Source of the DNA: Candidatus Collierbacteria bacterium | GTDB lineage: Bacteria; Patescibacteriota; Microgenomatia; UBA1400; MFAQ01 | DNA length: 52,762 bases | Direction: 5' to 3' | NCBI GenBank assembly: GCA_903884375.1 | Contig: CAISER010000020.1 | Coordinates: 1-52,762, forward strand | Part shown: positions 622 through 30,737 of the stretch, in pieces | Numbering within the stretch: the stretch's first letter is position 1 | Layout of the letters: each line of letters opens with the position of its first letter | Position numbers and translations under genes: made by a program | The notes under the pieces: model-generated | Told to the model about the DNA's origin: nothing | The model's input: only the letters and a program-made list of their open reading frames with translations | The model's database searches: none

Positions 622-1593
622 TTACTTGGACAAATTGTTGAAAACAGTTTTTATGTCAATAGTTTTTAGTTTAAATAGAGAAACTATCATACTGTGAATC
701 ATGGTAATGAGTAATAGTACAAACAACCAAAATGATCCCATTTCTGCATTAGATGTATTTTTTTCAATTAATTGAAACACTATATAAATTAATGGGATCA
801 TTGAAGCTACTAGATTTAATTTAGGAGTAACTTTATTTAAGAGCAGATATATACTCCACGTGATAATAACTGTAAATTCCCAAAAAGAAGGAAGAGATAA
901 TGAAAAAGGTTGGTAAATAACAATAAACAGAAAAGGTAATAATATGGTATAGAAGACCACTTTCTTTCGTGAAAATATTAACAGATTATGAAGGACATAT
1001 TGAACAAGGGGGAGCATGTAAAAAATTATTGGAAATAGTAATGCCATACTACTAACCATATTCTGAATTTTTAATAAGAGATATTTAAATGTGTCCGACG
1101 AAAAAAATGTTTGACGAAGAACATATTTATGTTTGCTAATTAACGTGGGTAATAGACGATCAACTTTTATATGACCTTCTTCAGAACCGGATTTAGATTC
1201 TATTTCAACTAAATAAACATTCCCCTTTGAGTTTTTGATAATTGGGAACCCAAACGGAAAGAACTGATGATCCTGAAATTGATCAGTTTTATAATTTGCC
1301 GTATAGTACCAATTTGCATTATTTTTATCTTTTAATCGAAAAACCAACGTGTCGTTGTTTATGCGTCCGAATGTCTGAAATCGTATTGCAATGATTCCTA
1401 AATTGTCATACTCAGAAATAAATTCCTGTGATATTTTCTCTCCAGTCAGAAGTTCTCTATTTCTTAATGAAGATGCATCATGTTCTTGAATCAATATCGA
1501 TGGAGATGGATCTAATTTATGTAGATATATATATGAAAATACCCCCCAATATATAATTAGGATAATATAGACAATAATTTTTGAAATTTTCAT
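622..1593 (-). CDS. Membrane protein of unknown function (signal anchor, extracytoplasmic domain, C-terminal helix bundle)
   Basis: 323 aa. N-terminal hydrophobic anchor IIVYIILIIYWGVFSYIYL, then a hydrophilic segment of about 150 aa, then several hydrophobic helices. No motif recognised. Its ATG overlaps the TGA of the upstream gene (ATGA at 1590-1593). Confidence 0.55.
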   Translation of the reverse strand: MKISKIIVYIILIIYWGVFSYIYLHKLDPSPSILIQEHDASSLRNRELLTGEKISQEFISEYDNLGIIAIRFQTFGRINNDTLVFRLKDKNNANWYYTANYKTDQFQDHQFFPFGFPIIKNSKGNVYLVEIESKSGSEEGHIKVDRLLPTLISKHKYVLRQTFFSSDTFKYLLLKIQNMVSSMALLFPIIFYMLPLVQYVLHNLLIFSRKKVVFYTILLPFLFIVIYQPFSLSLPSFWEFTVIITWSIYLLLNKVTPKLNLVASMIPLIYIVFQLIEKNTSNAEMGSFWLFVLLLITMIHSMIVSLFKLKTIDIKTVFNNLSK

Positions 1594-3773
1594 TTTTGAA
1601 TTTTATTTTTCCTTATCACCATATATATGACGTATAAAGCCATCAAAAGAAATATCGTGGCCGAAAATGGAAAGATTGTCGAGTATATTTCTTGAGGATA
1701 AAACTCAATTATATATTGGGCAGATGTAACCCCTGGGTTAGGATTAATAACCCATCCATTAACCAACTGATTGATTAATATGTGATCGAATTTTTGTTCT
1801 TTTCCATCTATATCAATAATTTTCCACCCTTGATGGAAGGTTTCGTTAAGTATCAGAATAAACTTTCCGGAAATATCAGTAATATTTATTTTGTATTTTG
1901 TGGCACTTAGAGGTGTAATTTTTATCGATGGTTCTTTTTTTGACAATGTATATGGTTTGTTTGGACCACATATTTGGCCGTTTTGTTCAAGATCTTTTGG
2001 GCACCCTACTAGCACAATCAGATTATCTAATTGTTTTTTAAGAATGTTTATGAATGAATCCGTTGAATAAATTGGAGATACCGATATGTATATCTGAGGA
2101 TAAGAATCCTTAATTTGACATATTTCCGTGATCGACCAATCTGAATCTTGAATCATTGTTGATATACATTCCGACTTTATTTTCTTTTGCGAAGTAGATA
2201 TTTGAATATTGGATTCTAATTTTGACCTAAGAAAAATATTGTTTACTCCGTAAACACCTAACATTTTTTTTGTCAAAACAATATCTTTTCCTGAATCAAT
2301 TAGGTTGTTTACAAAATTTTTTACCAAGGGGCTGCTTTTGTCACTTGTATAAATCCCCGTTGAGTATGGAGAAAAAAGTGCTTGAGTATCATAAACTTCC
2401 CAGAAATCTCCCATAAAACGAGTATCTGTCTTGGTTTTTGTCGAACCTCCGGTCGGTAATAATAAATTTATTTGATTAGAATATATATCCAGGCCATCTT
2501 CGTAACTTTCCATGGGTAGATCTAACAATCTAAGACGAAAATCTTTGCCAATAAATATGCCGTTGTTTTTATCTGACTTTGAAGTTGAGTAGATACCGTC
2601 AGAAAAGAATGGATATACAGAAAATAATAGGCAGATAATTAACGTACATAATAGTGTTTTGTTTTTTATTTGAGAAAAGGCAAGACCTATACCTGTGGAC
2701 AGTCCCAATGATGTAATAACCAAAAAACGACTACCGTCTCGTATTATCGTGGAAAATGGGATGTATGCGATTTCGGTTCGTAGTAAATATATTATCGGGG
2801 ATACCAATATCAAACACATCGAAAGGTTGTAATATCTTTGAAAATCATTTTTATCATTGACAATTGCACGGTAGATTATTAGACCGATTGGAAATAGTGA
2901 AAATAATAGTAGAGGTGATGGAAATACAATTTCGTACTGTTGGTTATATAAACTTCCCCACCCTCGAAAAGAATTCAGTAATGAGAAAACCGCAGAAAAT
3001 CTATCGACATCAAAGCTCGAAGTTGATTTGAAAGACAAATCCATATATTTCAAACTAGTTATGATCCAGGGAGCATTTGTAGCGATAACTGCTGAAAACA
3101 TGACAATCAAACCCATGAAAAACGATTTTATTTGTTTTGCGTATTCCAACTTATTAAATTGACTGAAAAATATAAATAGGTAAATTATTGGAAACCAGAC
3201 GATTGACTGTGATTGGGCAAATCCGAGTGTATATATAAAACCTAAAAATATCGCGTATTTAAATTTCCCGCTTGTAAAAAAGTTAATTGATATAAGGGCA
3301 AATAATGGTGATAAAGCCATGAATAATAGAACAAAATTCCAACCCATATTTATATAGTTAAATATCAAAGGGGAAAATAAATAACTTAACGCACCAACTA
3401 TCGATGCTGTTTTACGTTTGGTAAGCCGAAATATAAACAAGTACGAGAAATAATAAATTCCAATAATTGTTAAAAATAATGTGATTTTTTGGAAACTTTC
3501 ACCGCTTATGCCGATATCTGAGAATAAAGCAGCCAATAAATTAAATGGGTATGAATTCTTGTGAGAAGTTTGTGTTCCGGTTGGAATTTCTCTATTACTC
3601 CATATCGATGATACCGAATCGGCATAAACTTGAAGTTGTTTATTGGTATAAGGAGATGTCCAATCCCCCCCAACAATTAACCCCGGTTGCAAAAGAGGAA
3701 GAACGAATATAAAAAAAATGAGGAGAATGGGTAAAAAAAACAATAATATAATAGAAAATAAATTAGTTTTCAT
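1590..3773 (-). CDS. Large polytopic membrane protein, putative GT-C glycosyltransferase (AftD/DUF3367-like or YfhO-like architecture)
   Basis: 727 aa. N-terminal TM followed by the loop GGDWTSPYTNKQLQVYADSVSSIWSN...SYPF. Many hydrophobic helices fill the first ~400 aa. A soluble region of about 300 aa ends in FHQGWKIIDIDGKE...LVNGWVI, followed by a terminal TM anchor. This layout is typical of GT-C enzymes with a C-terminal extracytoplasmic domain. Confidence 0.5.
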   Translation of the reverse strand: MKTNLFSIILLFFLPILLIFFIFVLPLLQPGLIVGGDWTSPYTNKQLQVYADSVSSIWSNREIPTGTQTSHKNSYPFNLLAALFSDIGISGESFQKITLFLTIIGIYYFSYLFIFRLTKRKTASIVGALSYLFSPLIFNYINMGWNFVLLFMALSPLFALISINFFTSGKFKYAIFLGFIYTLGFAQSQSIVWFPIIYLFIFFSQFNKLEYAKQIKSFFMGLIVMFSAVIATNAPWIITSLKYMDLSFKSTSSFDVDRFSAVFSLLNSFRGWGSLYNQQYEIVFPSPLLLFSLFPIGLIIYRAIVNDKNDFQRYYNLSMCLILVSPIIYLLRTEIAYIPFSTIIRDGSRFLVITSLGLSTGIGLAFSQIKNKTLLCTLIICLLFSVYPFFSDGIYSTSKSDKNNGIFIGKDFRLRLLDLPMESYEDGLDIYSNQINLLLPTGGSTKTKTDTRFMGDFWEVYDTQALFSPYSTGIYTSDKSSPLVKNFVNNLIDSGKDIVLTKKMLGVYGVNNIFLRSKLESNIQISTSQKKIKSECISTMIQDSDWSITEICQIKDSYPQIYISVSPIYSTDSFINILKKQLDNLIVLVGCPKDLEQNGQICGPNKPYTLSKKEPSIKITPLSATKYKINITDISGKFILILNETFHQGWKIIDIDGKEQKFDHILINQLVNGWVINPNPGVTSAQYIIEFYPQEIYSTIFPFSATIFLLMALYVIYMVIRKNKIQK

Positions 3774-3924: not shown

Positions 3925-4679
3925 ATGAATAAATCGAAAAAATCAACATATATTTTGAAGATTCGTAATCGTAGGATTATTTTAGTGTTAGAAAAAATTT
4001 ACGACAAAATTGTTCCTAGTTTTATCAAAAATAATCGAACGTTCAACAAGTGGTTATACAAGTACTTAATCGGGTCTTGGTTTGATGTAGATTTTAAGCA
4101 AAAATATGAAAAATTTAAAACCAAAGATTGGATATATTTATATGACTCGTTATATGTTCATCGAATTAGAGACGAGGACATAACAGAAAATCAAAAAAAT
4201 TCGTTTTAAAATATCTTGAAGGTAATAGTATCGTTGATGTGGGATGTGGATTAGGATTTCTATGCAAACAGATAGTTATGAAGAATGATAAGTATAAGGT
4301 TGTTGGATGTGATTTATCTCCAGTGGCAATTAAAGATGATAATGAAAGGTTCCGTCGAATATCACGATTAAAATTTAAGGTGGAAAATATTACACAACTT
4401 AGTTTTAGAGATAAACAATTCGATACGTCCATTAGTTGTCATGTAATAGAACATGTTTTAAATTATAAAAAGGCAATCAGGGAGTTGGTTAGAATTACAA
4501 TGAAAAGACTAATAATTATCGTTCCAGAAGAGTATTATAAAAAATACTCTCCAGATTATCATATTAATTACTTTAATAGGGATAATCGGATCGAAAGTTA
4601 TTTTCCAAAAGACTTTACTGTTGTGGATACTCAACTCGTCGATGGAGATAGGTGCCTAGTTTTGGATAAAAATATTTAA
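3925..4679 (+). pseudogene. SAM-dependent methyltransferase interrupted by a frameshift at a homopolymeric A7 tract
   Basis: ORF 3925-4209 ends ...DEDITENQKNSF*. The next frame is open from 4146 and reads ...KKFVLKYLEGNSIVDVGCGLGFL...CDLS...ISCHVIEHV... (motif I and the post-I acidic residue). The only in-frame start for the downstream piece is the GTG at 4239, inside motif I. One extra A in the run at 4193-4199 would fuse both pieces into a protein of about 251 aa. Confidence 0.75.
4193..4199 (+). repeat. Homopolymeric A7 tract at the frameshift point of the methyltransferase
   Basis: Read directly: tc-aaaaaaa-ttcg at 4191-4203. Confidence 0.95.
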
Positions 4680-6877
4680 TGTTTTGACGCTTTTGGCCAA
4701 ATTCGGAATATTGAAACAGATTGTATAAAGAGAAAAAATATTATAAAAGCTATTCCCCACTTTTGATTAAGTAATTTGTAGTAAACACTATTTCCTGCCT
4801 CGAAAGAAAAATGTATATATGTGATGTAATAATATTCGATCATTGAAAGACACAAGACGACCCACTGACACCACCTTGGTAATTTTGCGATGAATAGAGT
4901 AGCCGTACCAACCAGTAAAGGAATAAGTCCGATGTTGTACCAGTTTAATCCAAGAATTGCGTAAAAACTTAAATAAAAGGCTGTGGTAATAAAAATAACG
5001 AAAAATGAAAAATAAGTAATAATTTTATTTATTTTTGATGGAAAAACAAATAAAGATATAAAAACAAAAGGGGTGAGAATAATGCTTATGGCTGGAAGTA
5101 GAGTGGTTCTAAAAGGACCATAGCTCCTAATTACCCCCTGTCTTGGGTTAGCAATAAAAACTCCCAATAAATTGTCGAGTTTTGCTGAGAGTATTTTTTG
5201 AAAATTATCAATTTGAATCGGTCTAACCATTTGCATTGTTTTGTTCGTATTTTCCCAACTACTAGAAATCATTGAAGCGATCAGTAAGCTATTCCCTGGT
5301 TCTAATCTCGACCATATTTGCCAAATGATAAAGGCAATAACTGGGAAAAAATATATTTTTGTAAGTAGGAATAATGATCTAAAGATATGCGACTTTCTAA
5401 AACATATTAATTGGAATAATGCGATTGGCGCGATATATATAAGGGCAAAGGGATGCGAAAGGAAAGCTAGAGTGGAGCTAAGAGATGCCATTACTATAAG
5501 TTTATTACTATGATCGGTTAATAGTCGATACGAATAATAAAAGAATAATAAAAGGAAAAAAAGCACCAATAATCTTACTTGGCCAAAATGACTGGCAAAA
5601 AATATCCAATGGTTGAAGGTTAAAAATATTGAGGTGATCGTGGCAATTTTTTTATTAAAAATGGAGTTTATCAGTACCCAACAACCTAATATGAAAACTG
5701 GTGAGATAACGATACTGATTATTTCAAATATGAAATGACGGTCTCCAAATATTGCTAAAAAAGGCAATGAATACAAAGATAGCAATGGTGTCCTGTCGGA
5801 AGGTTTATATCCTGTCATGATTTTCTCTGCTGCCGGATTAGTCAATGAAAGATCGTAATTCCAGACTTTTGTAACCGCGTAGGGTAGCTGAAAGTCGGTC
5901 TGATAGGCGCCGTATTGCGTGGGAAAATATATTGAGTTATCATATTTACTATCGTATTCCTCTATCAGTTTTATATCGTTATAGCCGTTAAAATTAAAGA
6001 AAAATAATAAGTTGACTAAATAAACAATCATTAACACAATAACCGTTTTGGAGTCATTGGAAATAGAAATTTTATTATTAATCAACTTGAACAATGAAAT
6101 AGTGATTAAAATACTTAACGTAATAATCATGACAATGTTTGTCTTTGTGATTAAGGATGTAATACCCAATAGGGAAAGGATCAATACACTCTTTAGCCAA
6201 ACCATTGAAAGATCGATCGGTGAAATAGAACTAACCTTCCGAAAAGTAATACCAAAACCAACAAAAATTGTGAGAGCCAGAAAAATGAGCGAGTAATAAA
6301 CGTAACATAGTGGCTCACGTTTTACGTAGAATAATTTTTGTGTAAGTCTTGTTAATAAATTATCTTGGGGTAGATAGAATGCTCTAATTTCACCTATACC
6401 AATTTTTCCATTCTCCGAACCTGGTGTTGAAAAAGAAAGTCTTAAGGTGCTGATTTTTTCTTTTTTCATTAATGCATTGGAAACAGTAACCAAACTAAAA
6501 TTATTGTCTTTGATCGTCTCGAGTGATTTCCAGGGGGTATTTGGTAGTGTTTGATATTCTACAAATATTTGTCTAGCCAGGTTATATGAAAAATATATTT
6601 CAATCTGATCGATTTTTTGGGAAGATTTGAAATAAAGAATGTTATCGCATTCTTTTTGTTTAACGACACAGTTAAATCCTGATTGGAGATTACCATCGAA
6701 TATTGATTGTGGGGTACCATTTGACGGATCATTAGGCACGTTATCTACCAGATTTAATGATTCGATAGAGCTAAAAGGAACTTGATGTCTATTTAAATTA
6801 TAAAAACTTAGTTTCGATCTTAACAATAATAGAATAACCAGAAAAGATATTAGAAAAATAATATTCTTTTTGATCAT
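4676..6877 (-). CDS. Polytopic GT-C-like membrane protein with an N-terminal discoidin-like (F5/8 type C-like) domain
   Basis: 733 aa. Signal anchor IIFLISFLVILLLL, then about 150 aa with IFDGNLQSGF...IDQIEIYFS...PWKSL...TLRLSF...GIGEIRAFY, a pattern like F5/8 type C carbohydrate-binding domains. About 500 aa of densely packed hydrophobic helices follow. Confidence 0.5.
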   Translation of the reverse strand: MIKKNIIFLISFLVILLLLRSKLSFYNLNRHQVPFSSIESLNLVDNVPNDPSNGTPQSIFDGNLQSGFNCVVKQKECDNILYFKSSQKIDQIEIYFSYNLARQIFVEYQTLPNTPWKSLETIKDNNFSLVTVSNALMKKEKISTLRLSFSTPGSENGKIGIGEIRAFYLPQDNLLTRLTQKLFYVKREPLCYVYYSLIFLALTIFVGFGITFRKVSSISPIDLSMVWLKSVLILSLLGITSLITKTNIVMIITLSILITISLFKLINNKISISNDSKTVIVLMIVYLVNLLFFFNFNGYNDIKLIEEYDSKYDNSIYFPTQYGAYQTDFQLPYAVTKVWNYDLSLTNPAAEKIMTGYKPSDRTPLLSLYSLPFLAIFGDRHFIFEIISIVISPVFILGCWVLINSIFNKKIATITSIFLTFNHWIFFASHFGQVRLLVLFFLLLFFYYSYRLLTDHSNKLIVMASLSSTLAFLSHPFALIYIAPIALFQLICFRKSHIFRSLFLLTKIYFFPVIAFIIWQIWSRLEPGNSLLIASMISSSWENTNKTMQMVRPIQIDNFQKILSAKLDNLLGVFIANPRQGVIRSYGPFRTTLLPAISIILTPFVFISLFVFPSKINKIITYFSFFVIFITTAFYLSFYAILGLNWYNIGLIPLLVGTATLFIAKLPRWCQWVVLCLSMIEYYYITYIHFSFEAGNSVYYKLLNQKWGIAFIIFFLFIQSVSIFRIWPKASKH

Positions 6878-6882
6878 TTAAA

Positions 6883-8046
6883 CTATCTTAAATCCAAATT
6901 TTTAATAATGGTTCTCTCCTGAATATTTGAGATATCTTTCCAAATAGGGACGTCTTGCAGTTTATAATTTTGGGGTTTAAGTTTCAATACCTTACATACC
7001 TCCTTGGCCATAGATTGAGTGTTACCTATGGAAACATACTTGATATAGGTTTTATATTTTTTGAAAATTAGTTTGTATACAGGTAAATTGTAGGCGACAA
7101 CTTTCATGCCACTTGCTATACCCTCGAGTATTCCTATGCCGAAGCCTTCCTCGTATGAGGGGGCTATCAGAATAGGTGTTGATTTCATCAGTTGTATTTT
7201 CTTTTCATTAGAGACATATCCAAAATAATGAAAATTGCGGTTTAATTTGAATCTTCGAAGCAAATCTTGAATTATATCCATATCCGATTTGGTACACGCC
7301 CCGATTACCCCCAACTTACATGAAGGTATGGATTGACAGATTATTTTGAGACATACCAGTGCGTCAAATATACCTTTTGTTTTGTTTAAACGACCAACAT
7401 AAAGGATATCCGTACTCATCTTATCCTTTTTATACTTTTTTCTAAAATCGGATGACACGGCTGCACCCGAAATTGAAATTCTTTCCGGTTTGAATCCTAA
7501 GTTTAGAAGTATCCCCTTTCCTTCGGAAGTTAGCACAAAAATATGATCGGCCGTTAATTTTATAATAAATAGACTAAATCTTTGAAGCACTAGTGAAGTT
7601 AAACTATAAATAAATCGATTCTTGCGTTTCCAAGGAACGGGATTTAAATGAAAAAAATTACAAAATATTTTTGTCTTTGGGTGAAATATTTTGTATATCG
7701 CCGCCGGTAGAGTGTTACAAAAGAAGTCTCCGGTTAAATATAATCCATCAACGCGACCTATCGCGGGAAACAGGAAAATTGTTTTTACGGTGCGGACTAT
7801 ATAGCTGTATAAAATCTCCAACCCACCAATAAAACCACCCATATATTGGATATGGGTATTGTCTGATGAAAAGTATTTAGCATTTTTTATCTTGGACTTC
7901 AAATCCGCATGTGTGTCCAATGGGGAAATAATTTTTAAGGAAAAGTTAAATTTTGAAACGATCTCCGTTGAAAGAACGTCGCCTCCGGATGCTATCTTCG
8001 GAGAAAGTAACTGATTAAAACAGACAAGTAACTTAATCTTTTCCAT
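6883..8046 (-). CDS. GT-B fold glycosyltransferase, family 4-like
   Basis: 387 aa. C-terminal PSYEEGFGIGILEGIASGMKVVAYN contains the E-x7-E nucleotide-sugar motif typical of GT4 enzymes. Confidence 0.8.
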   Translation of the reverse strand: MEKIKLLVCFNQLLSPKIASGGDVLSTEIVSKFNFSLKIISPLDTHADLKSKIKNAKYFSSDNTHIQYMGGFIGGLEILYSYIVRTVKTIFLFPAIGRVDGLYLTGDFFCNTLPAAIYKIFHPKTKIFCNFFHLNPVPWKRKNRFIYSLTSLVLQRFSLFIIKLTADHIFVLTSEGKGILLNLGFKPERISISGAAVSSDFRKKYKKDKMSTDILYVGRLNKTKGIFDALVCLKIICQSIPSCKLGVIGACTKSDMDIIQDLLRRFKLNRNFHYFGYVSNEKKIQLMKSTPILIAPSYEEGFGIGILEGIASGMKVVAYNLPVYKLIFKKYKTYIKYVSIGNTQSMAKEVCKVLKLKPQNYKLQDVPIWKDISNIQERTIIKNLDLR

Positions 8047-8705
8047 TAATCATCATTTTTAATTGCTTCGATATACATGCTTGTAGCTTTGTGTATCTCA
8101 AGTTCAAGTTTGTTTAAATCCGGTGTTTTTCCTTTTCTAAAACTACATTTTTGAATGCTTGAAAATCCCGTTTCTTTTAATAAATCTCTTAAATAGGGGA
8201 AGTTGTAATGCCATTTGTGATACCTGATAAATTGAATTGAAATTTTTTTAATAAGATTGGGAGTTTTATCTTTTTCATCCCCAAAAATTGCTTTATCAAA
8301 TTCTCTTGCTGAGTTTATCTTATTGGGATTATTTTTATAATTTGAAATTACCTTTTCGATATCTGGTACACTGATCCTTAATATTCCACCTTTCTCCATG
8401 ACTCTGTGACATTCCGATAATATTGACCTCGCTTCCCAGTATTCAAAATGTTCAAGAACTTGTGAACAAAAAAGGAACTTAACAGTGTTGTCTTTAAGAG
8501 GAAATTTTTTTCTGATATCAACAATTTTAATTTTTGGCCATTTCTCTTTATAACTGTTACTTAGTAGATGAATTTTTATTAATATTGATTTTAATTTTGG
8601 TAATGTTGAGATTAGTGGTAATATTCCAAAATCATAATTCAGCCACCCCGATATACCGCAAGGACCACAACCGATGTTTAGTTTTATGTGTTTACCTTTT
8701 TTCAT
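8046..8705 (-). CDS. Class I SAM-dependent methyltransferase
   Basis: 219 aa. LNIGCGPCGISGW (motif I), FCSQVLEHF, GGILRISVPD; the layout resembles Methyltransf_11/23. Confidence 0.75.
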   Translation of the reverse strand: MKKGKHIKLNIGCGPCGISGWLNYDFGILPLISTLPKLKSILIKIHLLSNSYKEKWPKIKIVDIRKKFPLKDNTVKFLFCSQVLEHFEYWEARSILSECHRVMEKGGILRISVPDIEKVISNYKNNPNKINSAREFDKAIFGDEKDKTPNLIKKISIQFIRYHKWHYNFPYLRDLLKETGFSSIQKCSFRKGKTPDLNKLELEIHKATSMYIEAIKNDD

Positions 8706-8721
8706 ATTAAATATATTTTTA

Positions 8722-9741
8722 TTATTTAAATCCGGGGTCGAAATCTATCTTTCCTAACGTTTTCGAATTAAATTTTAATTTAAATATTTCAGTGAGCTTC
8801 CTAAGGACCGTCCTTGGCGTTAATAACGACATTAAAGTGAAAAATAAAAATTTGTAATTAAAAATATTTATCCATCTATATTTGATCAGTGAGCTAATCT
8901 CTCTTAATAATTGTCTTGTTGTACCAAAATTTTTTATTTGAATTAATCCTACATAATTTGTGGCGATAAAATTTCTTAAAATATACTCTCTCATTCTTTT
9001 ATATCTTTTTTCCGGAAATTCCGTATACAAGGTGTTTTTCCACACTTCCATGGGAGAGTTTCGATAGACGTTGGGATTCGTTGAACCGTTACTACCGATC
9101 CTTACTCCAAGAATATAATCTTTAAGAATGACTGCCTTATGGTCTTTCAGAGCTTTCATAACGGCGGAGGCCATTTCAACAAATGGCTGGTTATTGAATG
9201 AAAAATTCAACAGATCTTTTCGAAAGGAAACTCCGGACATCTGATCAGATAGAGCCATCACATCGATGATCTTGTTAAAAGATGATCGTATGCTTACGAC
9301 CATATCTTTATCAAAATGTCTTGTTACTCTGACCGGACGTAAATCGTTCCCAATAAACCAGAAGTATGGGCGGATAACAACCCCAACATTTTTTGAAGTA
9401 TTAAATGCGTTAATGATTTTCTTCAATGCATATTTATCAAAGAGATCGTCTCCCGCCAAAAATACGATTATTTTCCCTACCGCCTTGTCTTTACATTTCT
9501 CAAGATTTTTTCCACAACCGATATTTTTTTTATTTTTGTATAGCCGGATCCTTGAGTCCTTGAAACTCTTGATCTTTTTAATGGTGTTATCTTTTGAGGC
9601 GTCGTCGACGATAACTATTTCAAAATCACGGATGCTCTGGTTAGCTAATGATCTTAAGGTGGAAACAATGGTGTTTCCGGAGTTATACGTCGGAATACAT
9701 ACACTGATCAAAACCTTTTTTTTACTAGATTTTCTGTTCAT
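8722..9741 (-). CDS. GT-A fold glycosyltransferase, family 2
   Basis: 339 aa. ISVCIPTYNSGNTIVSTLRSLANQSIRDFEIVIVDDASKDNT and LAGDDL (DxD-type) are classic GT2 N-terminal signatures. Confidence 0.85.
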   Translation of the reverse strand: MNRKSSKKKVLISVCIPTYNSGNTIVSTLRSLANQSIRDFEIVIVDDASKDNTIKKIKSFKDSRIRLYKNKKNIGCGKNLEKCKDKAVGKIIVFLAGDDLFDKYALKKIINAFNTSKNVGVVIRPYFWFIGNDLRPVRVTRHFDKDMVVSIRSSFNKIIDVMALSDQMSGVSFRKDLLNFSFNNQPFVEMASAVMKALKDHKAVILKDYILGVRIGSNGSTNPNVYRNSPMEVWKNTLYTEFPEKRYKRMREYILRNFIATNYVGLIQIKNFGTTRQLLREISSLIKYRWINIFNYKFLFFTLMSLLTPRTVLRKLTEIFKLKFNSKTLGKIDFDPGFK

Positions 9742-9762
9742 TAATTGGTCAGTATTAATTTA

Positions 9763-9792
9763 TTGATGCTATCACAAAATCAAGAGTATAAG
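9763..9792 (+). promoter_or_regulatory. Candidate sigma70-type promoter (TTGATG-N18-TATAAG) for the epimerase/transketolase operon
   Basis: Hexamers at 9763-9768 and 9787-9792 in the 75-nt divergent intergenic region, 24 nt upstream of the ATG at 9817. Weak evidence in AT-rich DNA. Confidence 0.25.
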
Positions 9793-9816
9793 TAGTGATA
9801 AAATCTTAATACAATT

Positions 9817-10683
9817 ATGAAGGAAAAAATCTTAGTTACCGGCGCAAATGGTTTCATAGGATCCGGATTGGTTAAAGAACTTGAAGATGGAGGTGCGAGG
9901 GTGATCAAACTGGATAGGGCTATTCTGACTCAACCGGATGTTTTAATTCGAACGATAAAAAGAATTAAACCTTCAAAAATATTTCATCTAGCCGCTTACG
10001 GAAATCATTATGATCAAAAGGATGTTAGGGAGATATATAACGCAAATGTCTATGGAACATTTAATCTATTACAGGCAGCCTCTCAGGCAGGAGTAAAGTG
10101 TTTTGTTAATACCGGATCTTCAAGCGAATATGGAAAGAAGGATGTTCCAATGAAAGAAGATATGGTCCCTGAGGCAAATACAATGTACGGAGCTACAAAG
10201 GTCGCCTCAACATATCTATCTAAGGCATTCGCATCTGAGTATGGGCTTCCGGTCGTAACAGTCAGACCGTTTTCGGTTTATGGCCCTGGGGAAGCAGAAC
10301 ACAGATTTATTCCTACGGTCATAAGATGCTGTCTTTCAGGCCAACCACTTAAACTTGCCCATGGAGTTCACGATTGGATATATATAGATGATTTCGTTAA
10401 CGGAATGATAATTGCAGCCAATAATATCAGGAAATTATCTGGTGAGGTTGTCAATATTGGCACAGGGAAACAGTATTCCAATGAAAAAGTCGTTGAAGAA
10501 GTTCAGAATATCTGTGGTATAAATGTAAAGAAAGAGGAGATTGGCAGTATTAGAAACTTCGATACCATAACTTCATGGGTTGCTGACAACGAAAAACTTA
10601 GGTCGTTTGGATGGAAACCCAAAATTGATCTTAGAAACGGTATCGAAAAAGTAATAAATGCTAAAAAGACAAATAAATCATAG
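9817..10683 (+). CDS. NAD-dependent sugar epimerase/dehydratase (extended SDR)
   Basis: 288 aa. ILVTGANGFIGSGLV (GxxGxxG), TGSSSEYG, YGATKVAS (YxxxK catalytic motif). Confidence 0.85.
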   Translation: MKEKILVTGANGFIGSGLVKELEDGGARVIKLDRAILTQPDVLIRTIKRIKPSKIFHLAAYGNHYDQKDVREIYNANVYGTFNLLQAASQAGVKCFVNTGSSSEYGKKDVPMKEDMVPEANTMYGATKVASTYLSKAFASEYGLPVVTVRPFSVYGPGEAEHRFIPTVIRCCLSGQPLKLAHGVHDWIYIDDFVNGMIIAANNIRKLSGEVVNIGTGKQYSNEKVVEEVQNICGINVKKEEIGSIRNFDTITSWVADNEKLRSFGWKPKIDLRNGIEKVINAKKTNKS

Positions 10684-11368
10684 AAGAAGAATTATCGAGC
10701 TAATAAAAGAGGCTGATACTACACATATTGGCTCTGCATTGTCTGTAGTTGATATCATCGACGCTATCTACAAAGTAAAGAAAAAGAAGGAGAAATTTAT
10801 CCTAAGTAACGGACATGCAGCTGCAGCGCTATACGTTATTCTTGAGAGCTACGGAATAGTAAAAGATCCCAAGATCAATATCTTGGGTGTTCATCCGGAA
10901 AGAAATCCTCAAATCGACATTCATCTGTCTACCGGTAGTCTGGGACAAGGTCTGCCAGTTGCAGTCGGTATGGCAATGGCAGATAGATCAAAAAATGTTT
11001 ATTGTTCCATATCTGATGGTGAGTGCGCTGAAGGAAGTATTTGGGAAGCAGTGTCAGTTGCTTCAAAATATAAGCTTAATAATCTAAAAATAGTAGTTAA
11101 TGCTAATGGATATGCGGGTTACGAGGAAATCAATTCTGATAGTCTTAAATCAAAATTCCACAGTTTTGATTGTGATGTTGTTGATGTAAATGGACACAAT
11201 ATTGGAGAAATCATCAGAGGACTTGCCATCGAAACAAAAACACCATTACTGGTTTATGCAAGAACTAACGTCGAGCAACTTCCCTTTTTAAAAGGGCTTT
11301 CTGCCCATTACTACAAAATGACAGAGGAAGATTATAAATTGGCAATTAAAACATGGTCAAAGAATTAG
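10658..11368 (+). CDS. Transketolase-like ThDP enzyme, N-terminal (diphosphate-binding) subunit
   Basis: 236 aa. HIGSALSVVDIIDAIY, SNGHAAAALYVILESYG, STGSLGQGLPVAVGMAMA, ISDGECAEGSIWEA. These match the PP-domain signatures of split transketolases. Confidence 0.8.
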   Translation: MLKRQINHRRRIIELIKEADTTHIGSALSVVDIIDAIYKVKKKKEKFILSNGHAAAALYVILESYGIVKDPKINILGVHPERNPQIDIHLSTGSLGQGLPVAVGMAMADRSKNVYCSISDGECAEGSIWEAVSVASKYKLNNLKIVVNANGYAGYEEINSDSLKSKFHSFDCDVVDVNGHNIGEIIRGLAIETKTPLLVYARTNVEQLPFLKGLSAHYYKMTEEDYKLAIKTWSKN

Positions 11369-11868
11369 ATTTGAAAGAAAGATATGACACCATGAGGGGG
11401 TGGTTTGCATATGAGCTTCATAAACAGATGGTCAAAAATCCCAAGATTTGGTTAGTAACAGGTGATCTTGGTTATGGAATGTTTGATAAGATCAAAAGAG
11501 ATTTTCCAGAGAGGTTTGTCAACGTTGGAGCGGCCGAACAAACATTGTTGGGTGTTTCAATAGGATTGGCTTACGAAGGAATGATTCCCATCACTTATTC
11601 AATAACACCATTTTTGCTCTATCGGCCGTTCGAAACAATTAGAAATTATGTAAATAGAGAAAAAGTTCCGATTATCTTGGTTGGAGGAGGAAGAGATAAA
11701 GATTATGGACATGACGGCTTTTCTCACTGGTCAGATGAAGACAAAAGAGTAATGACGTTATTCCCAAATATCATTTCCACTTGGCCCGAGAGTAAGGAAA
11801 GTATTCCCGATCTTTTTGAAACGATTTTGTCAAGTACCGTTCCCTATTATCTTAACTTACGAAGATAA
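11353..11868 (+). CDS. Transketolase-like ThDP enzyme, pyrimidine-binding subunit (short, no C-terminal domain)
   Basis: 171 aa. FPERFVNVGAAEQTLLGVSIGLAYEGMIPI and GHDGFSHWSDEDKRVMTLFPN match the transketolase Pyr domain. The protein ends right after this domain. Overlaps the upstream subunit by 16 nt. Confidence 0.75.
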   Translation: MVKELDLKERYDTMRGWFAYELHKQMVKNPKIWLVTGDLGYGMFDKIKRDFPERFVNVGAAEQTLLGVSIGLAYEGMIPITYSITPFLLYRPFETIRNYVNREKVPIILVGGGRDKDYGHDGFSHWSDEDKRVMTLFPNIISTWPESKESIPDLFETILSSTVPYYLNLRR

Positions 11869-12564
11869 TTATTTTTTCTTAGTCAGTACAAGTTCCCAAT
11901 TATAATAGCCGAGGATGGGGATTCTTAAGGCTCTGATCGTTTTCCAAAATAGATTATCACGTTTTTTTATTGATACACCCAGTCTTTTTGTAATAAAATC
12001 TATTAAAGGAAACCGCTGTGTTGTTTTGTTACTCACATTAATGGTGAAGAATTTTTTCAATAAATTTGTCAGTTGCTCATCATTTGTATATTCCCTTAGA
12101 TGTGTTGGGTCAAGTACCCAACCGGTGTTATTTTTGTAAAAATACCAACCATACCACTTCTTGAAGACCGTCGATAAATAGACAGTTCCTTTATCTTTAA
12201 GGACTCTATTAAAAGAGGTTGTCATCTTTTCATCATCTACATGCTCAATAACTTGTGTTGAAATTACCAAATCTTGGCTATTGTCCCCGATCGAGTTCAT
12301 TGTTTCGGCAGAGTCGACTTTAGCATTAAATTTTGGAAAATTTCTCTTTACTATTTCTATTCTGTCCTTTGAAAGATCGATGGCATTTACCTTTAGATTC
12401 CCTAATAGTCCTTCTTTATTGAGGGCATATAAAATGGATCCGTCTCCGCAGCCGCAATCGAGAATAGAATCAAATTTATGATTTTTGAATAATCTCAAAA
12501 GTATTTTTGGGGCTTCACCTGTATAGTACTGTGGAGCGAATTTGGCGTACTTCTCGATATTCAT
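11869..12564 (-). CDS. Class I SAM-dependent methyltransferase
   Basis: 231 aa. ILDCGCGDGSILYAL (motif I), AIDLS, VISTQVIEHVDD, GTVYLST. Confidence 0.8.
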   Translation of the reverse strand: MNIEKYAKFAPQYYTGEAPKILLRLFKNHKFDSILDCGCGDGSILYALNKEGLLGNLKVNAIDLSKDRIEIVKRNFPKFNAKVDSAETMNSIGDNSQDLVISTQVIEHVDDEKMTTSFNRVLKDKGTVYLSTVFKKWYGWYFYKNNTGWVLDPTHLREYTNDEQLTNLLKKFFTINVSNKTTQRFPLIDFITKRLGVSIKKRDNLFWKTIRALRIPILGYYNWELVLTKKK

Positions 12565-13304
12565 TTTAATTGTTCTTGAATTTTATCCAATACTTTTGTT
12601 ACTTTAATGGCATGTTCAAGTCCGGTAACACATTTTTCACCTTTTATAAAGGCAATAAACGACCGGAGCTCATTTTCCAGGGGGGCTATCGACTGTATAA
12701 TAGTGTCGTCGAAGTCTACTGAATCATATTCACCATGGGCTACGATCTTCCTTAATTTTTCTGAGTAATTCCAACCTGTTTCGATATGACATTCCGATTT
12801 TTCATATTTTAATGTGATGGATAAATTTTCATTGATCTTTTCGGCTTTTATCACTTGTGGCTCACCCAAAAAATAAACGGCAAGAGACACTCCGTGGGGG
12901 GCAAGATACCATAACGGAGTAGTATTTTCCTCGGCATGGATATTACATAGTTTAATATCCAATCTATTTATTTTGCCGACTTTTTTCAGTTTTTCCATGA
13001 GTCCTTTGTTATACAAATATATATGTCCAACCATTACTTTATTGTTGTTTATCTCAAGTGCATCCTTTAAAGAAGTTGCAAATGGTTTTTCGATAAGAAG
13101 ATATTTGTTGGGAAACTCTTTGGCAATTTCAGTGTGAGTGGAGTCCGGAGTGGCAATTATTATTCCATTAATATCATTATATTGCTGTAGCTCCTTATAG
13201 TTTCTTGTCACCACATATTTTATTTCCACATCCGGAATATTATTAACAACGTTAAGATAACGACTTCCCCATTTCCCCTTTCCAATCAAAGCAAGTGTAA
13301 TCAT
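12561..13304 (-). CDS. Gfo/Idh/MocA-family NAD(P)-dependent oxidoreductase (short form)
   Basis: 247 aa. ITLALIGKGKWGSRY Rossmann start, IIIATPDSTHTEIA, LLIEKPFATSL (EKP motif). Confidence 0.7.
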   Translation of the reverse strand: MITLALIGKGKWGSRYLNVVNNIPDVEIKYVVTRNYKELQQYNDINGIIIATPDSTHTEIAKEFPNKYLLIEKPFATSLKDALEINNNKVMVGHIYLYNKGLMEKLKKVGKINRLDIKLCNIHAEENTTPLWYLAPHGVSLAVYFLGEPQVIKAEKINENLSITLKYEKSECHIETGWNYSEKLRKIVAHGEYDSVDFDDTIIQSIAPLENELRSFIAFIKGEKCVTGLEHAIKVTKVLDKIQEQLK

Positions 13305-13307
13305 TAT

Positions 13308-14318
13308 TTAAACAACATATCTTGATTTATTTGTATTTTCAAAATCAAGAATATCGTATATATTATCCAATTTTGCACCGACAATAATATCAAAACCAGG
13401 AAACCCATAATCACTTCTAAATAATATTGGTCTTCCGTCGTCATAATCATTCTGTATAAGAACCGTTTTTCTTTCGCGTATATCACCCTTATGTTTCATG
13501 TCTTTCATATCGGGAATACAATTTACGACGTGTTCTTTTATCTTTTTGTAATCACCACCTTCAGGGGTTAATTCTACATGATGTATGGTGTGAAGACCTC
13601 GTTTGGGAAAAGGATAAATTGAAAAGAAAGAACCGTCCATTATTGTAATTGATACATTTTTAAACTTTTCAGGTACTTCCACTAAGGGCATAACGGTATC
13701 TTCGTTCCTTATTGGGAGTTCGGGAAGGTTTGAGTTTATTAATAACTTATTTGTGTCAGCGTAGATACAGGCTATAATTTTTTTTGCGTTTATTTCTCTA
13801 TCTCTTAGATATATCTTTCCTTCACTAACTTTTTTCACTTCAGTATTTAATAATATATCAACGTGTTTTAATTTCTCAATCAAAATCTTTTTAATTTTTT
13901 CGGAATCAAATACTCCTTCGTGTCCTAAAAAAATATCTTCAACAAATTCCAGATTAAACCATTTTTTAAGATTTTCCGGACATTCATATAAAGGACAGCC
14001 AACTTTTTTACATGCTTTCTTATATTTTTTTGCATCAGTTTTTCCATTGCGACCCACGGCATAGAACATTGTGTAGTCATCAGATACTGCATCTTTAAAC
14101 TCTGCCATGAATCTTGGAAAATTTATATGGGCTGCAAAAGCAGTTTTATAACTTCTTGGATAGTGATAACCATTGTGTACTCTTGCCTGATTATTAGCTG
14201 AGGCTTTTTGCATTAAATCATTTTCTTTTTCAATTAAAAGAACCTTTCCTTTCAGATTTTGGGCAATCATACAACCAAAAAATCCACCGCCAATCACAAT
14301 ATAATCATAATTATTCAT
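13308..14318 (-). CDS. FAD-dependent oxidoreductase
   Basis: 336 aa. YDYIVIGGGFFGCMIAQNLKGKVLLIEKE is a GxGxxG...E dinucleotide-binding fold at the extreme N-terminus. The substrate cannot be inferred. Confidence 0.7.
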   Translation of the reverse strand: MNNYDYIVIGGGFFGCMIAQNLKGKVLLIEKENDLMQKASANNQARVHNGYHYPRSYKTAFAAHINFPRFMAEFKDAVSDDYTMFYAVGRNGKTDAKKYKKACKKVGCPLYECPENLKKWFNLEFVEDIFLGHEGVFDSEKIKKILIEKLKHVDILLNTEVKKVSEGKIYLRDREINAKKIIACIYADTNKLLINSNLPELPIRNEDTVMPLVEVPEKFKNVSITIMDGSFFSIYPFPKRGLHTIHHVELTPEGGDYKKIKEHVVNCIPDMKDMKHKGDIRERKTVLIQNDYDDGRPILFRSDYGFPGFDIIVGAKLDNIYDILDFENTNKSRYVV

Positions 14319-15373: not shown

Positions 15374-16930
15374 TTAATCGTTTTCCCCGTGCTGACCAAG
15401 CTGTTTGGGTGAGAAATCGGTAAGGTGACCTAAAAATCTCCACCCGGCCATAAAGAGAAATTTTATATCGTCAATTCTTTTTATTTCCCTTATCTTGCGC
15501 CAAATAAACTTGGGGTTGAGGAAGGACTTGTAGAGCTCTTGGGTGAGTTCCATTACCTGTTTTTCCGTAAGTGGCGATTTCATAATAGGCTTCCTCATGT
15601 CGTAATCCTCATAGTTCTCTGACAATAACCAACCTTTTTCTTTACATTCTTTCCAAAGAGGAGTTCCCGGATATGGAATAACAACTGTTGCTTGGAGAGT
15701 GTCGACATAACCTTTTTCAAAACATTTTTTGGCAAGAGCAACTGTACGCTTGGCGTCTTTGTAAGTCTCCCAAGGATATCCCATCATTATAGTGAGATGT
15801 GGGTCAAGTCCGCCTTTTTTCGCCATACGAACACCTTCTTCAATTTGTTTGACTTTGAGACCCTTGTCTAGATGATCAAGTGTCTTCTGATTTGCAGATT
15901 CCATTCCGTATAGGATAAAGCGAAAATTTGCCTTACCCATTAAGTCATAATGTTCTTGTCGAAGCGCGTTGAGACGCATATTGCAACTAAAAACAACTTT
16001 TTTGTTGTAACCTGAATCAATTAATAGATTGCAAAAATCGATAAGTGGTTTTCCAATCATAAAAGTACCCGCATCGTCAAAAATTTCTTTAACGTGATAT
16101 TTATCGACGACGTGCTTTACTTCATCAAAAAGTCTTTGAGGAGTAAAGCGGCGATATGAACCTATTGGATTAATAGTATGATCCCAAACGCAAAATGTAC
16201 AACGATTCCACCAACAATCACGACCAGAGTACATATAAGTAGCTGGTGTGTATTTATAGTTCCCATTGTAAACGGAGTAGAGTTCCCATTTGGTTAGGTC
16301 TCGATCAATAAACGGTAATTCGTTTAGATTATGAGCAACAGACGGTTTTCCCGAATTTGCATAAACTATCTTTCCTTTTCTTTTAATTGTGGCGAATGGT
16401 TTTTGTTTTATCCGCTTGTCGGATGCTCTCCACCATACTCCACCTTCGAGTTTTGTTTTTTTTGTTAAATAATCGAGAAGATTGACGATGACAAAATCAT
16501 AGTCACCACCAGTGATTAGATAATCTACTTTGCTGTTGTCAAACATTTCTTCCGGGGCAAAGGTGACGTGATCACCTACCCAAACAGTGATTAGTTTTGG
16601 AAAAACTTTTTTGAGATCGTTAATTATTTCCCAGTGTTTTTTGACTATTGGGGATTTGGTTTCGACCATTAAAACATCCGGTTTCCATGCCTTCAACTCT
16701 TTGAGCCATTCCTTGTGTGTTTGTTCGGCAGCAATTCCATCCATCCACTTTACTTTGTAGCCATGTTTCTTTAAATTGGAAGCGGCATAGGCCGGAACCA
16801 TGGGATAGATATATGTCTTTGCGTTGAAGTACTGGAATTGCCTATTTTGTGAAAGAAGAGCAACTCCTTTGTCAGAAAGAATGGGAGGGTACCCGATTGC
16901 AACACGAAGAGGATTTTTTGTTGAGTTCAT
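15374..16930 (-). CDS. B12-binding-domain radical SAM enzyme (class B-like)
   Basis: 518 aa. The N-terminal ~170 aa has a flavodoxin-like B12-binding layout (YPMVPAYAASNLKKHGYKV...DVLMVETKSP...VWVGDHVTF). Next comes the cluster motif SGRDCWWNRCTFCVW, then a TIM-barrel-like region (FILYGMESANQ, HLTIMMGYPWET). The Cys spacing as read is C-x4-C-x2-C, not the canonical C-x3-C-x2-C. Confidence 0.8.
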   Translation of the reverse strand: MNSTKNPLRVAIGYPPILSDKGVALLSQNRQFQYFNAKTYIYPMVPAYAASNLKKHGYKVKWMDGIAAEQTHKEWLKELKAWKPDVLMVETKSPIVKKHWEIINDLKKVFPKLITVWVGDHVTFAPEEMFDNSKVDYLITGGDYDFVIVNLLDYLTKKTKLEGGVWWRASDKRIKQKPFATIKRKGKIVYANSGKPSVAHNLNELPFIDRDLTKWELYSVYNGNYKYTPATYMYSGRDCWWNRCTFCVWDHTINPIGSYRRFTPQRLFDEVKHVVDKYHVKEIFDDAGTFMIGKPLIDFCNLLIDSGYNKKVVFSCNMRLNALRQEHYDLMGKANFRFILYGMESANQKTLDHLDKGLKVKQIEEGVRMAKKGGLDPHLTIMMGYPWETYKDAKRTVALAKKCFEKGYVDTLQATVVIPYPGTPLWKECKEKGWLLSENYEDYDMRKPIMKSPLTEKQVMELTQELYKSFLNPKFIWRKIREIKRIDDIKFLFMAGWRFLGHLTDFSPKQLGQHGEND

Positions 16931-29001: not shown

Positions 29002-29026
29002 ATAATCATTATAATTCCTTGATGAG

Positions 29027-30733: not shown

Positions 30734-30737
30734 ACCC

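Follow-up and report, generated by a model that had tools for sequence, protein, structure and literature searches.

A minimal split transketolase-like enzyme encoded with a nucleotide-sugar-type dehydrogenase/reductase in a glycan locus of Candidatus Collierbacteria

The stretch of DNA analysed here, 52,762 nucleotides of contig CAISER010000020.1 from a Candidatus Collierbacteria bacterium (hereafter the window), raises the question of what a very small transketolase-like enzyme does inside a glycan locus. The 52.7-kb window is one continuous glycan locus, and on its plus strand it carries three overlapping genes. These encode an extended short-chain dehydrogenase/reductase (SDR) at 9817-10683 (288 residues; Pfam Epimerase, 2e-48), the alpha subunit of a mini-transketolase, which is the pyrophosphate (PP) domain that binds thiamine diphosphate (ThDP) and Mg, at 10658-11368 (236 residues; Pfam Transketolase_N, 8e-18), and its beta subunit, consisting of the pyrimidine (Pyr) domain only, at 11353-11868 (171 residues; Pfam Transket_pyr, 2e-15). 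We observed that this mini-transketolase is tied genetically to an SDR of the nucleoside diphosphate (NDP)-sugar type and is embedded in surface-glycan loci, and a dedicated glycan role of the mini-transketolase family is very probable. As far as the function of the trio is concerned, sequence comparisons lead us to favour, with moderate confidence, a glycan-tailoring module, in which the NDP-sugar-type SDR would be combined with a minimal two-subunit transketolase-like enzyme that adds a two-carbon (C2) ketol unit to an activated sugar.

A preliminary description of this region had listed three overlapping plus-strand genes for an SDR, a PP subunit and a 171-residue Pyr subunit, and this was confirmed by the open reading frames (ORFs), by the Pfam matches and by AlphaFold2 (AF2) models. 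The SDR and alpha genes overlap by 26 nucleotides and the alpha and beta genes by 16 nucleotides; identical overlaps are found in locus L003, from a Collierbacteria metagenome-assembled genome (MAG) that also has gene order in common with the window, which suggests that translation of the trio is coupled. All of the motifs that had been quoted, namely GxxGxxG and YxxxK in the SDR, and GHAAAALY and SDGECAEGSIWEA in the PP subunit, are readable in the translations. Separate, adjacent genes for the PP and Pyr subunits are the layout of split-gene transketolases, and this is how the window pair is organised. Residues 14-167 of the Pyr subunit cover positions 5-165 of the 174 positions of the Transket_pyr profile, and Pfam finds this domain alone in the subunit, Transketolase_C being absent. 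Minus-strand genes border the trio on both sides. Since the next of them, a convergent methyltransferase gene, ends at position 11869, one base past the stop codon of the Pyr subunit, there is no coding space left in which a decayed C-terminal domain could be hidden behind the beta subunit. Four mechanically called plus-strand ORFs in this area (9266-9766, 10887-11087, 11915-12139 and 12281-12481) are shadows of real genes, either antisense or out of frame, and are not for annotation.

Typical beta subunits, such as that of PDB entry 6YAJ and those of Paenibacillus and Azospirillum, have about 300 residues and include Transketolase_C, and the observation that the window subunit stops right after its Pyr domain stands. 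To see how common this form is, we searched 5.8 billion proteins for homologues, counting family members as sequence clusters at 90% identity. The Pyr subunit had 2,059 homologues, of which the best 120 listed are 158-201 residues long and carry PF02779 only, while the PP subunit had 5,397, the best 120 listed being of about 216-253 residues; overall, the more than 2,000 Pyr homologues are mostly of about 160-175 residues. In a library of representatives at 50% identity, all 33 clusters with E below 1e-30 were short, and in the next tier (1e-29 to 1e-23) short proteins were mixed with Pyr plus Transketolase_C subunits of about 300 residues, at 36-43% identity. When family members were aligned, 62 of 70 ended exactly at the column of Arg171 of the window beta subunit, which corresponds to Arg520 of Escherichia coli TktA. 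The short Pyr-only form is a family trait and not a truncation event; the word "truncated" in the preliminary description is misleading, because the length is conserved throughout the family. The window Pyr subunit scored 95-116 bits against subunits from other glycan loci, as compared to 62 bits against the solved split transketolase. In a phage collection we found weak matches only (28-33% identity), all to ordinary transketolase fragments. Public databases label the homologues as 'transketolase', 'DXS N-terminal domain protein' or 'hypothetical'.

Is such a small enzyme likely to be active? AF2 was run on single chains. The model of the PP subunit had a pLDDT of 93.0 and a query-normalised TM-score of 0.87 to the alpha chain of 6YAK, and that of the Pyr subunit a pLDDT of 91.8 and a query-normalised TM-score of 0.83 to the beta chain of 6YAJ over 161 columns. 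According to these models, both subunits are complete, well-folded PP and Pyr domains. Matches to PDB sequences gave 7e-29 for alpha against the 6YAK alpha chain and 4e-16 for beta against the split transketolase. The subunits were then aligned to E. coli TktA, and each position was checked over 66 PP and 70 Pyr sequences of the family. In the alpha subunit, the TktA residues His26, His100, Asp155 and Asn185 correspond to His23, His79, Asp120 and Asn150, conserved in 66/66 sequences, and His66 and His261 correspond to His53 and His217, conserved in 65/66. In the beta subunit, the cofactor-activating Glu411 corresponds to Glu62 and His473 to His125 (both 70/70), Asp469 to Asp121 (56/70), and Arg520 to Arg171, with Arg or Lys in all sequences; Phe87, the aromatic residue that stacks on the pyrimidine, is invariant (70/70). 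The ThDP/Mg motif reads Ser119-Asp120-Gly121 followed by Asn150, and its Asp, Gly and Asn are invariant in 66/66. The first position of this motif, Gly in the classical GDG, is Ser in 62 sequences, Thr in 3 and Gly in 1 of the 66, so that the reading SDG, already remarked in the window, is a trait of the family. The catalytic residues are invariant even among family sequences that are only about 50% identical.

The preliminary description had taken the loss of ThDP-binding or catalytic His residues as the sign of an inactive relic, and the alignment revealed that none of them is lost. The idea of a decaying pseudogene pair derived from a truncated transketolase could appeal to a beta subunit of about half the usual length and to the SDG reading, both of which, as seen above, are conserved family-wide; together with the invariance of the catalytic residues, the confident AF2 models and the lack of residual coding space past the stop codon, this makes a relic practically inconceivable, and we regard it as effectively refuted by the conservation data.

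The same comparisons bear on the kind of ThDP chemistry involved. In the fold search with the PP subunit, the top 44 matches were all transketolases and DXS appeared first at rank 45. With the Pyr subunit, DXS chains came just under the split transketolase, and E1 beta chains lower, with TM-scores of 0.76-0.78. An acyloin synthase resembling YerE or DXS, which would decarboxylate pyruvate and transfer the hydroxyethyl or acetyl unit to a keto sugar to form a branch of the yersiniose type, would agree with the high position of DXS in the Pyr search and with secondary Pfam and NCBIfam matches to DXP_synthase_N and DXS. It would also agree with the use of pyruvate by YerE and KbDH, the sugar-branching ThDP enzymes that have been characterised (PMC12247030). 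We consider it quite unlikely, given the invariance of the full transketolase histidine set (26, 66, 100, 261 and 473), the 44 transketolases that precede DXS in the PP search, and the score of 65 bits for Transketolase_N against 34 bits for DXP_synthase_N.

The substrate site tells a different story from the cofactor site. His461 of TktA is replaced by Gly113 of beta in 69/70 sequences, its place being occupied by a loop with the invariant Arg114 and Tyr118 of beta, and the position of Ser385 is variable (Thr, Val, Ala or Ser). Arg358 probably corresponds to the invariant Arg15 of beta, although the alignment is ambiguous there. Two of the four ligands of the canonical sugar-phosphate site (Arg358, Ser385, His461 and Arg520 in TktA) are thus lost, and the family also lacks the PP-domain loop that matches TktA residues of about 40-60. 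Judging from these alignments, every residue needed for ThDP/Mg binding and transketolase chemistry is retained, and the substrate channel appears to be altered.

The SDR encoded upstream has all the features of an extended SDR, i.e. the GxxGxxG motif (GANGFIG, with Gly9, Gly12 and Gly15), the Ser/Thr-Tyr-Lys triad (Ser101, and Tyr124 and Lys128 in YGATK, the YxxxK motif) and a C-terminal substrate domain. In Pfam, Epimerase covers residues 5-215 and GDP_Man_Dehyd extends to residue 278. Among PDB entries it matches best the UDP-glucuronate 4-epimerases MoeE5 (4e-33) and 6ZL6, and next GalE enzymes and 4-keto reductases. Its identity is 73% to the SDR of locus L074 and 64% to that of L003. We also noticed that about 19 residues of the consensus of 43 cassette SDRs, located in the cofactor-binding region behind the second beta strand, are missing from the window SDR. 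A 4,6-dehydratase was ruled out, since the acid/base pair of these enzymes (TDE in RmlB, SxE in GMD-type enzymes) is absent and GSSSEYG, a motif conserved in the alignment of the 43 cassette SDRs, is found instead; moreover, NCBIfam dehydratase models score far under their cut-offs on the window protein. A decarboxylase of the UXS/ArnA type was considered as a possible reading, but Glu104 aligns, in the comparison with PDB sequences, with the Val of SSSVYG in epimerases. By its sequence, the protein looks like an NDP-sugar epimerase, oxidase or reductase and not like a dehydratase. For the interpretation in the preliminary description this is a caveat: the enzyme looks like an epimerase or reductase, and the motif of a 4,6-dehydratase is absent.

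A scan of 185,579 species genomes yielded 69 loci; ORFs were clustered over the related loci, and the counts given here refer to 70-71 loci. The hosts are mostly Microgenomates of the candidate phyla radiation (CPR), with Omnitrophota, Planctomycetes, Elusimicrobia and MAGs labelled Gammaproteobacteria. The alpha gene adjoins the beta gene in 68/71 loci. A recurrent cassette could be recognised, in the order extended SDR (about 315 residues), Zn-ribbon class I methyltransferase (about 300 residues), alpha, beta and a family 2 glycosyltransferase (GT2; about 310 residues), with the GT2 present in 52 and the Zn-ribbon methyltransferase in 44 of 70 loci. A second layout, seen in about 7 loci, consists of alpha, beta, a classical SDR, a GT2 and a methyltransferase. 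The cassette GT2 proteins are 64-78% identical across phyla and have two C-terminal transmembrane helices in 39/40 cases, and score highest with the PgfS (245 bits) and ArnC (155 bits) models, without reaching the NCBIfam cut-off of either; this architecture is that of polyprenyl-phosphate sugar transferases, which supply GT-C transferases, as in the Pgf pathway (PMC12041528). Large polytopic membrane proteins are encoded in 34 of 37 full-length related loci, and pairs resembling RfbF and RfbG lie beside the cassette in 4-5 CPR loci.

Two side observations concern individual loci of this set. L054, L058 (a MAG labelled 'Maricaulis sp.') and L057 (a MAG labelled 'Thaumarchaeota') agree in gene order, almost fully in ORF lengths, and in their percentages of identity to the window proteins, and such a likeness across distant taxa is probably due to binning or contamination errors in public MAGs. 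In L002, positions 7799-10495, genes for a small cytidylyltransferase (CTP_transf_like) and a DUF2061 protein lie just upstream of the SDR, alpha and beta genes. This locus contains many small unknown ORFs and a gene for a TFIIB-type zinc-ribbon protein, and its host may be archaeal or viral.

Could the pair simply be a housekeeping enzyme that serves the pentose phosphate pathway, found in a glycan locus by chance and dispensing with its C-terminal domain? The catalytic residues are all intact, the C-terminal domain of transketolases is non-catalytic and CPR genomes are streamlined, all of which would be compatible with this idea. Nevertheless, the distribution of the family over CPR, Omnitrophota, Planctomycetes, Elusimicrobia and proteobacterial MAGs is patchy, and its members are always found in glycan loci adjoining an SDR. 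In addition, neither His461 nor Ser385 is kept, the nearest relatives with a C-terminal domain come from sugar clusters on plasmids of Paenibacillus and Azospirillum, and a fusion between SDR and transketolase, described below, would make no sense for the pentose phosphate pathway. A housekeeping role is for these reasons very unlikely.

The closest relatives with known context that keep Transketolase_C adjoin extended SDRs in sugar loci. In L075, the genes for an SDR, a Transketolase_N subunit and a Pyr-Transketolase_C subunit are accompanied by GT1, GT2, methyltransferase and APH-type kinase genes; in L081, the same three are accompanied by a second SDR and a GT2. On an Azospirillum argentinense (Az39) plasmid, an SDR, a B12-radical SAM (S-adenosylmethionine) enzyme, the transketolase pair, a methyltransferase, a GHMP kinase, a nucleotidyltransferase and a DegT aminotransferase are encoded together. 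On plasmid NZ_CP054609.1 of Paenibacillus cellulosilyticus KACC 14175 (L078), rfbF for CDP-glucose synthesis is followed by rfbG (CDP-glucose 4,6-dehydratase) and, in this order, by the genes of a C-methyltransferase of the TylC3 type (Methyltransf_13/23/14), a 635-residue protein, a Pyr-Transketolase_C subunit, a TylF-type O-methyltransferase and glycosyltransferases. The 635-residue protein, WP_110042955.1 (L078 10097-12004), is publicly annotated only as 'SDR family oxidoreductase', whereas Pfam identifies in it an Epimerase-type SDR (residues 19-247) fused to Transketolase_N (residues 383-612). This fusion argues that the SDR and the transketolase act in consecutive steps. The preliminary description had proposed a sugar-tailoring ThDP enzyme that acts with the SDR and not in the pentose phosphate pathway, and this proposal is supported by the make-up of the window, nearly all of whose genes are for glycosyltransferases, methyltransferases and flippases, by the 70 glycan loci in several phyla, by the relatives with a C-terminal domain that lie beside SDRs, by the Paenibacillus fusion, and by the higher bit scores against subunits from glycan loci than against the solved split transketolase.

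A tailoring role might still be exerted at an earlier stage. The transketolase could act on free sugar phosphates to give an unusual ketose phosphate (a heptulose, octulose or pentulose), which the SDR would reduce or epimerise and which a kinase and a nucleotidyltransferase would activate for the glycan. The retention of the equivalents of Arg358 and Arg520 is in line with such precursor supply, as are the classical SDRs that can stand in for the extended one, the GHMP kinase and nucleotidyltransferase of the Azospirillum plasmid locus, the APH-type kinase of L075 and the cytidylyltransferase encoded two genes upstream of the SDR in L002. On the other hand, genes for a kinase, an isomerase or a nucleotidyltransferase are missing from the conserved cassette, and the canonical phosphate site has lost His461 and Ser385. 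The SDR belongs to the NDP-sugar type, GT2 enzymes of the kind tightly linked to the pair need an NDP-sugar donor, and the SDR-PP fusion lies beside genes that form CDP-4-keto-6-deoxyglucose. On balance, we regard precursor supply as unlikely.

For the tailoring module that we favour, the following sequence of events can be proposed. By analogy with other split transketolases, alpha and beta would assemble as an α2β2 tetramer. Hydroxypyruvate, a ketose phosphate or a similar donor would hand a two-carbon ketol unit to ThDP, giving 1,2-dihydroxyethyl-ThDP, and this unit would then be joined to a carbonyl group of the activated acceptor sugar, for which an NDP-4-keto-6-deoxyhexose or a keto or aldehydo sugar made by the SDR is the likeliest candidate. 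The product would have a hydroxyacetyl branch or a chain extended by two carbons. The SDR would provide the adjoining redox step, either making the acceptor carbonyl or reducing the new side-chain ketone, and the neighbouring methyltransferases would decorate the product. In most relatives, the PgfS/ArnC-like GT2 would then load the sugar on polyprenyl phosphate for GT-C enzymes acting outside the membrane; in the window, a soluble GT2 occupies that slot and might serve instead. The opposite reaction, i.e. cleavage of a C2 unit from a heptose side chain, was discarded on chemical grounds, as we infer that the carbon needing a free hydroxyl group bears the ring oxygen.

We give this specific chemistry, C2 ketol transfer to the carbonyl of an activated sugar, about an even chance on the strength of the sequences, and several facts weigh against it. 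Transketolases normally take aldehyde acceptors, and acceptance of a ketone is unproven for any of them (PMC12247030). Arg15 and Arg171, the counterparts of Arg358 and Arg520, are also compatible with a sugar-phosphate substrate. No nucleotidyltransferase or 4,6-dehydratase gene lies nearby in the window and in most related loci, and only about 5 of the 70 loci encode RfbF. A classical adh_short SDR takes the place of the extended one in about 7 loci, which fits a simple ketoreductase and weakens the argument from NDP sugars. Both the PgfS-like GT2 (no tblastn match) and the Zn-ribbon methyltransferase are absent from the whole window, and our full-text literature search found no paper on the mini-transketolase family and no characterised member of it. 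The fullest version of our proposal, which we put forward only tentatively, is that an α2β2 transketolase of minimal size, lacking the C-terminal domain and having a remodelled substrate channel, would create a C-C bond on a keto sugar linked to a nucleotide or to polyprenyl. The reaction would give rise to a new methylated sugar with a hydroxyacetyl or dihydroxyethyl branch, or extended by two carbons (e.g. an octose), displayed by CPR, Omnitrophota and other uncultured bacteria through a polyprenyl-phosphate/GT-C route.

What the surroundings of the trio contribute can be seen by comparison with its closest relatives with context, L074 (beta 87% identical) and L003, in both of which the genes for the GT2 and the Zn-ribbon methyltransferase lie upstream of the SDR gene in divergent orientation; the divergent GT2 lies at 5740-6690 in L074 and at 6550-7491 in L003. 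At this place the window has, divergent from the SDR, a soluble GT2 of 339 residues (8722-9741, minus strand; Pfam Glycos_transf_2, 1e-27), which shows no predicted transmembrane segments, is only 24% identical to the cassette GT2 and is a candidate transferase for the product of the trio. The absence of the cassette GT2 from the window implies either a direct transfer of the product from its nucleotide sugar or a lipid-carrier GT2 encoded outside the window. In the same divergent arm lies a class I SAM methyltransferase of 219 residues (8046-8705, minus strand; Methyltransf_11), a possible tailoring methyltransferase, which was rejected as an orthologue of the cassette Zn-ribbon enzyme because no similarity was found at 1e-3.

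Downstream of the trio, on the minus strand and convergent to it, the gene that abuts the beta stop codon encodes another class I SAM methyltransferase (11869-12564; 231 residues; Methyltransf_11/23/25), belonging to the same cluster (c51) and having the same position as a gene in L003. It is followed by a GFO/IDH/MocA-type NAD-binding oxidoreductase (12561-13304, minus strand; 247 residues; GFO_IDH_MocA), with a weak NCBIfam match to UDP-GlcNAc 3-dehydrogenase (8e-9), and by the adjoining gene of a DAO-type FAD oxidoreductase (13308-14318, minus strand; 336 residues; DAO, 1e-14). Orthologues of the two, 61% and 81% identical respectively, occupy the same positions in L074, where they are likewise convergent to the trio; the link of the GFO-type gene to the trio is lineage-specific. 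The GFO-type protein, a possible sugar dehydrogenase, and the flavoenzyme could generate the carbonyl (keto) acceptor.

The window as a whole contains about 12 GT2 genes, three GT4 genes, several methyltransferases, a B12-radical SAM enzyme and a Wzx-type flippase. It also holds at least ten GT-C proteins of the PMT_2 type, six of which are tandem paralogues. These six (545-586 residues, one cluster) lie at 22391-32375 on the minus strand, and five of them match PMT_2; three further PMT_2 genes are found at 4676-6877, 38650-40230 and 50201-51916. This is an unusually large set of lipid-carrier-dependent glycosyltransferases. The B12-binding radical SAM enzyme (15374-16930, minus strand) belongs to a family that is encoded near the mini-transketolase in 8 related loci, and it may catalyse C-methylation of the same sugar. 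Three polytopic membrane proteins with 8-12 predicted transmembrane segments each have no Pfam match, at 45555-48752 (minus strand, 1,065 residues), 36423-38693 (plus strand, 756 residues) and 1590-3773 (minus strand, 727 residues); apart from the trio, the second of these is the window's one sizeable gene on the plus strand. Nucleotidyltransferase genes, housekeeping genes, tRNA genes and Rfam matches were not found in the 52.7 kb. k-mer matches of the region occur only in DNA metagenomes from lakes and other freshwater.

If this interpretation is correct, these proteins would form a large family whose members are the smallest transketolase-type enzymes known, indicating that PP and Pyr domains alone suffice in nature. 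They would also give the first experimental access to transketolase-type C2 transfer to sugar ketones, a route to tertiary alcohols that a 2025 review lists as proposed and never demonstrated (PMC12247030); a member of the family would be the first transketolase shown to work with an activated sugar as its substrate, and perhaps also the first for which a ketone can be the acceptor. The trio points to a modified surface sugar in CPR/Patescibacteria, whose envelope chemistry is essentially unexplored, and the Paenibacillus cellulosilyticus plasmid locus with its SDR-transketolase fusion offers a culturable, tractable model for the family. Public labels would need correction as well, since the current names can wrongly credit genomes with a pentose-phosphate enzyme.

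Among known systems, the split transketolase of Carboxydothermus hydrogenoformans (6YAK/6YAJ, α2β2) is the best PDB match of the window pair both in sequence and in fold, and the two have in common adjacent PP and Pyr genes and the same catalytic His and Glu. They differ in the beta subunit, of about 300-340 residues with Transketolase_C in 6YAJ and of 171 residues with no such domain in the window, in an identity of only about 30%, and in the glycan-biosynthesis context of the window family. In the uncharacterised Paenibacillus locus, the SDR and PP parts of the fusion are 25% (2e-18) and 31% (3e-30) identical to the window proteins, the beta subunit WP_110042956.1 is 33% identical to the window beta, and the same three activities are encoded in the same order in a sugar-nucleotide locus. 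In contrast to the window, the SDR and PP parts are fused there, the beta subunit (308 residues) keeps Transketolase_C, the motif reads GDG instead of SDG, and the locus has its own rfbF, rfbG, TylC3-type C-methyltransferase and TylF-type O-methyltransferase.

The closest parallel in proposed chemistry comes from the miharamycin and amipurimycin pathways, for which split-gene transketolases have been suggested to furnish a keto sugar with a hydroxyacetyl group, with no proof in vitro, and of which 13 homologues are predicted in Streptomyces (PMC12247030). There too, the split transketolase is encoded with an oxidoreductase in a sugar-tailoring cluster, and it is a sugar carbonyl that is proposed to receive the C2 ketol unit. 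Those are secondary-metabolite clusters of actinomycetes, unlike the surface-glycan loci of CPR and other uncultured phyla, which usually include a polyprenyl-phosphate GT2; the two were compared by description only. YerE, which makes yersiniose, and pairs of the AviB1/AviB2 type are alike in forming a C-C bond on an NDP-keto sugar with ThDP, and the likeness is likely a functional analogy. YerE is a single chain of about 560 residues, similar to decarboxylases and acetohydroxyacid synthase (AHAS) and arranged as Pyr-TH3-PP, whereas the window has two chains, PP and then Pyr; the window pair has a partial match to TPP_enzyme_C (1e-7) and matches of about 1e-3 to 1e-6 to AHAS models, and does not fall into the YerE type. 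The AviB proteins are alpha and beta subunits of a keto-acid dehydrogenase E1, a type whose beta subunit combines Transket_pyr with Transketolase_C. The window pair does not fall into this type either, with E1_dh at 0.006 as compared to 8e-18 for Transketolase_N and with no Transketolase_C; YerE and AviB thus belong to ThDP superfamilies other than that of the window pair. YerE and AviB use pyruvate, while the window family has the transketolase histidines that handle a hydroxylated C2 unit.

Finally, the lipid-carrier side of the cassette recalls the Pgf pathway of Streptococcus mutans, in which the GT-A enzyme PgfS is paired with an epimerase and GT-C enzymes (PMC12041528), and the Arn pathway of Enterobacteria. 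PgfS and ArnC are the best matches of the cassette GT2 found in the relatives, which shares with them two C-terminal transmembrane helices, and the loci, the window included, are rich in GT-C proteins of the PMT_2 type. Neither Pgf nor Arn contains a transketolase, and the PgfS-like GT2 is a feature of the family cassette only, the window being without it. In conclusion, both transketolase-type ThDP enzymes and sugar-tailoring ThDP enzymes were already known, and the family described here is set apart from them by the loss of the third domain, by a changed substrate site and by a conserved five-gene cassette with a lipid-carrier GT2.

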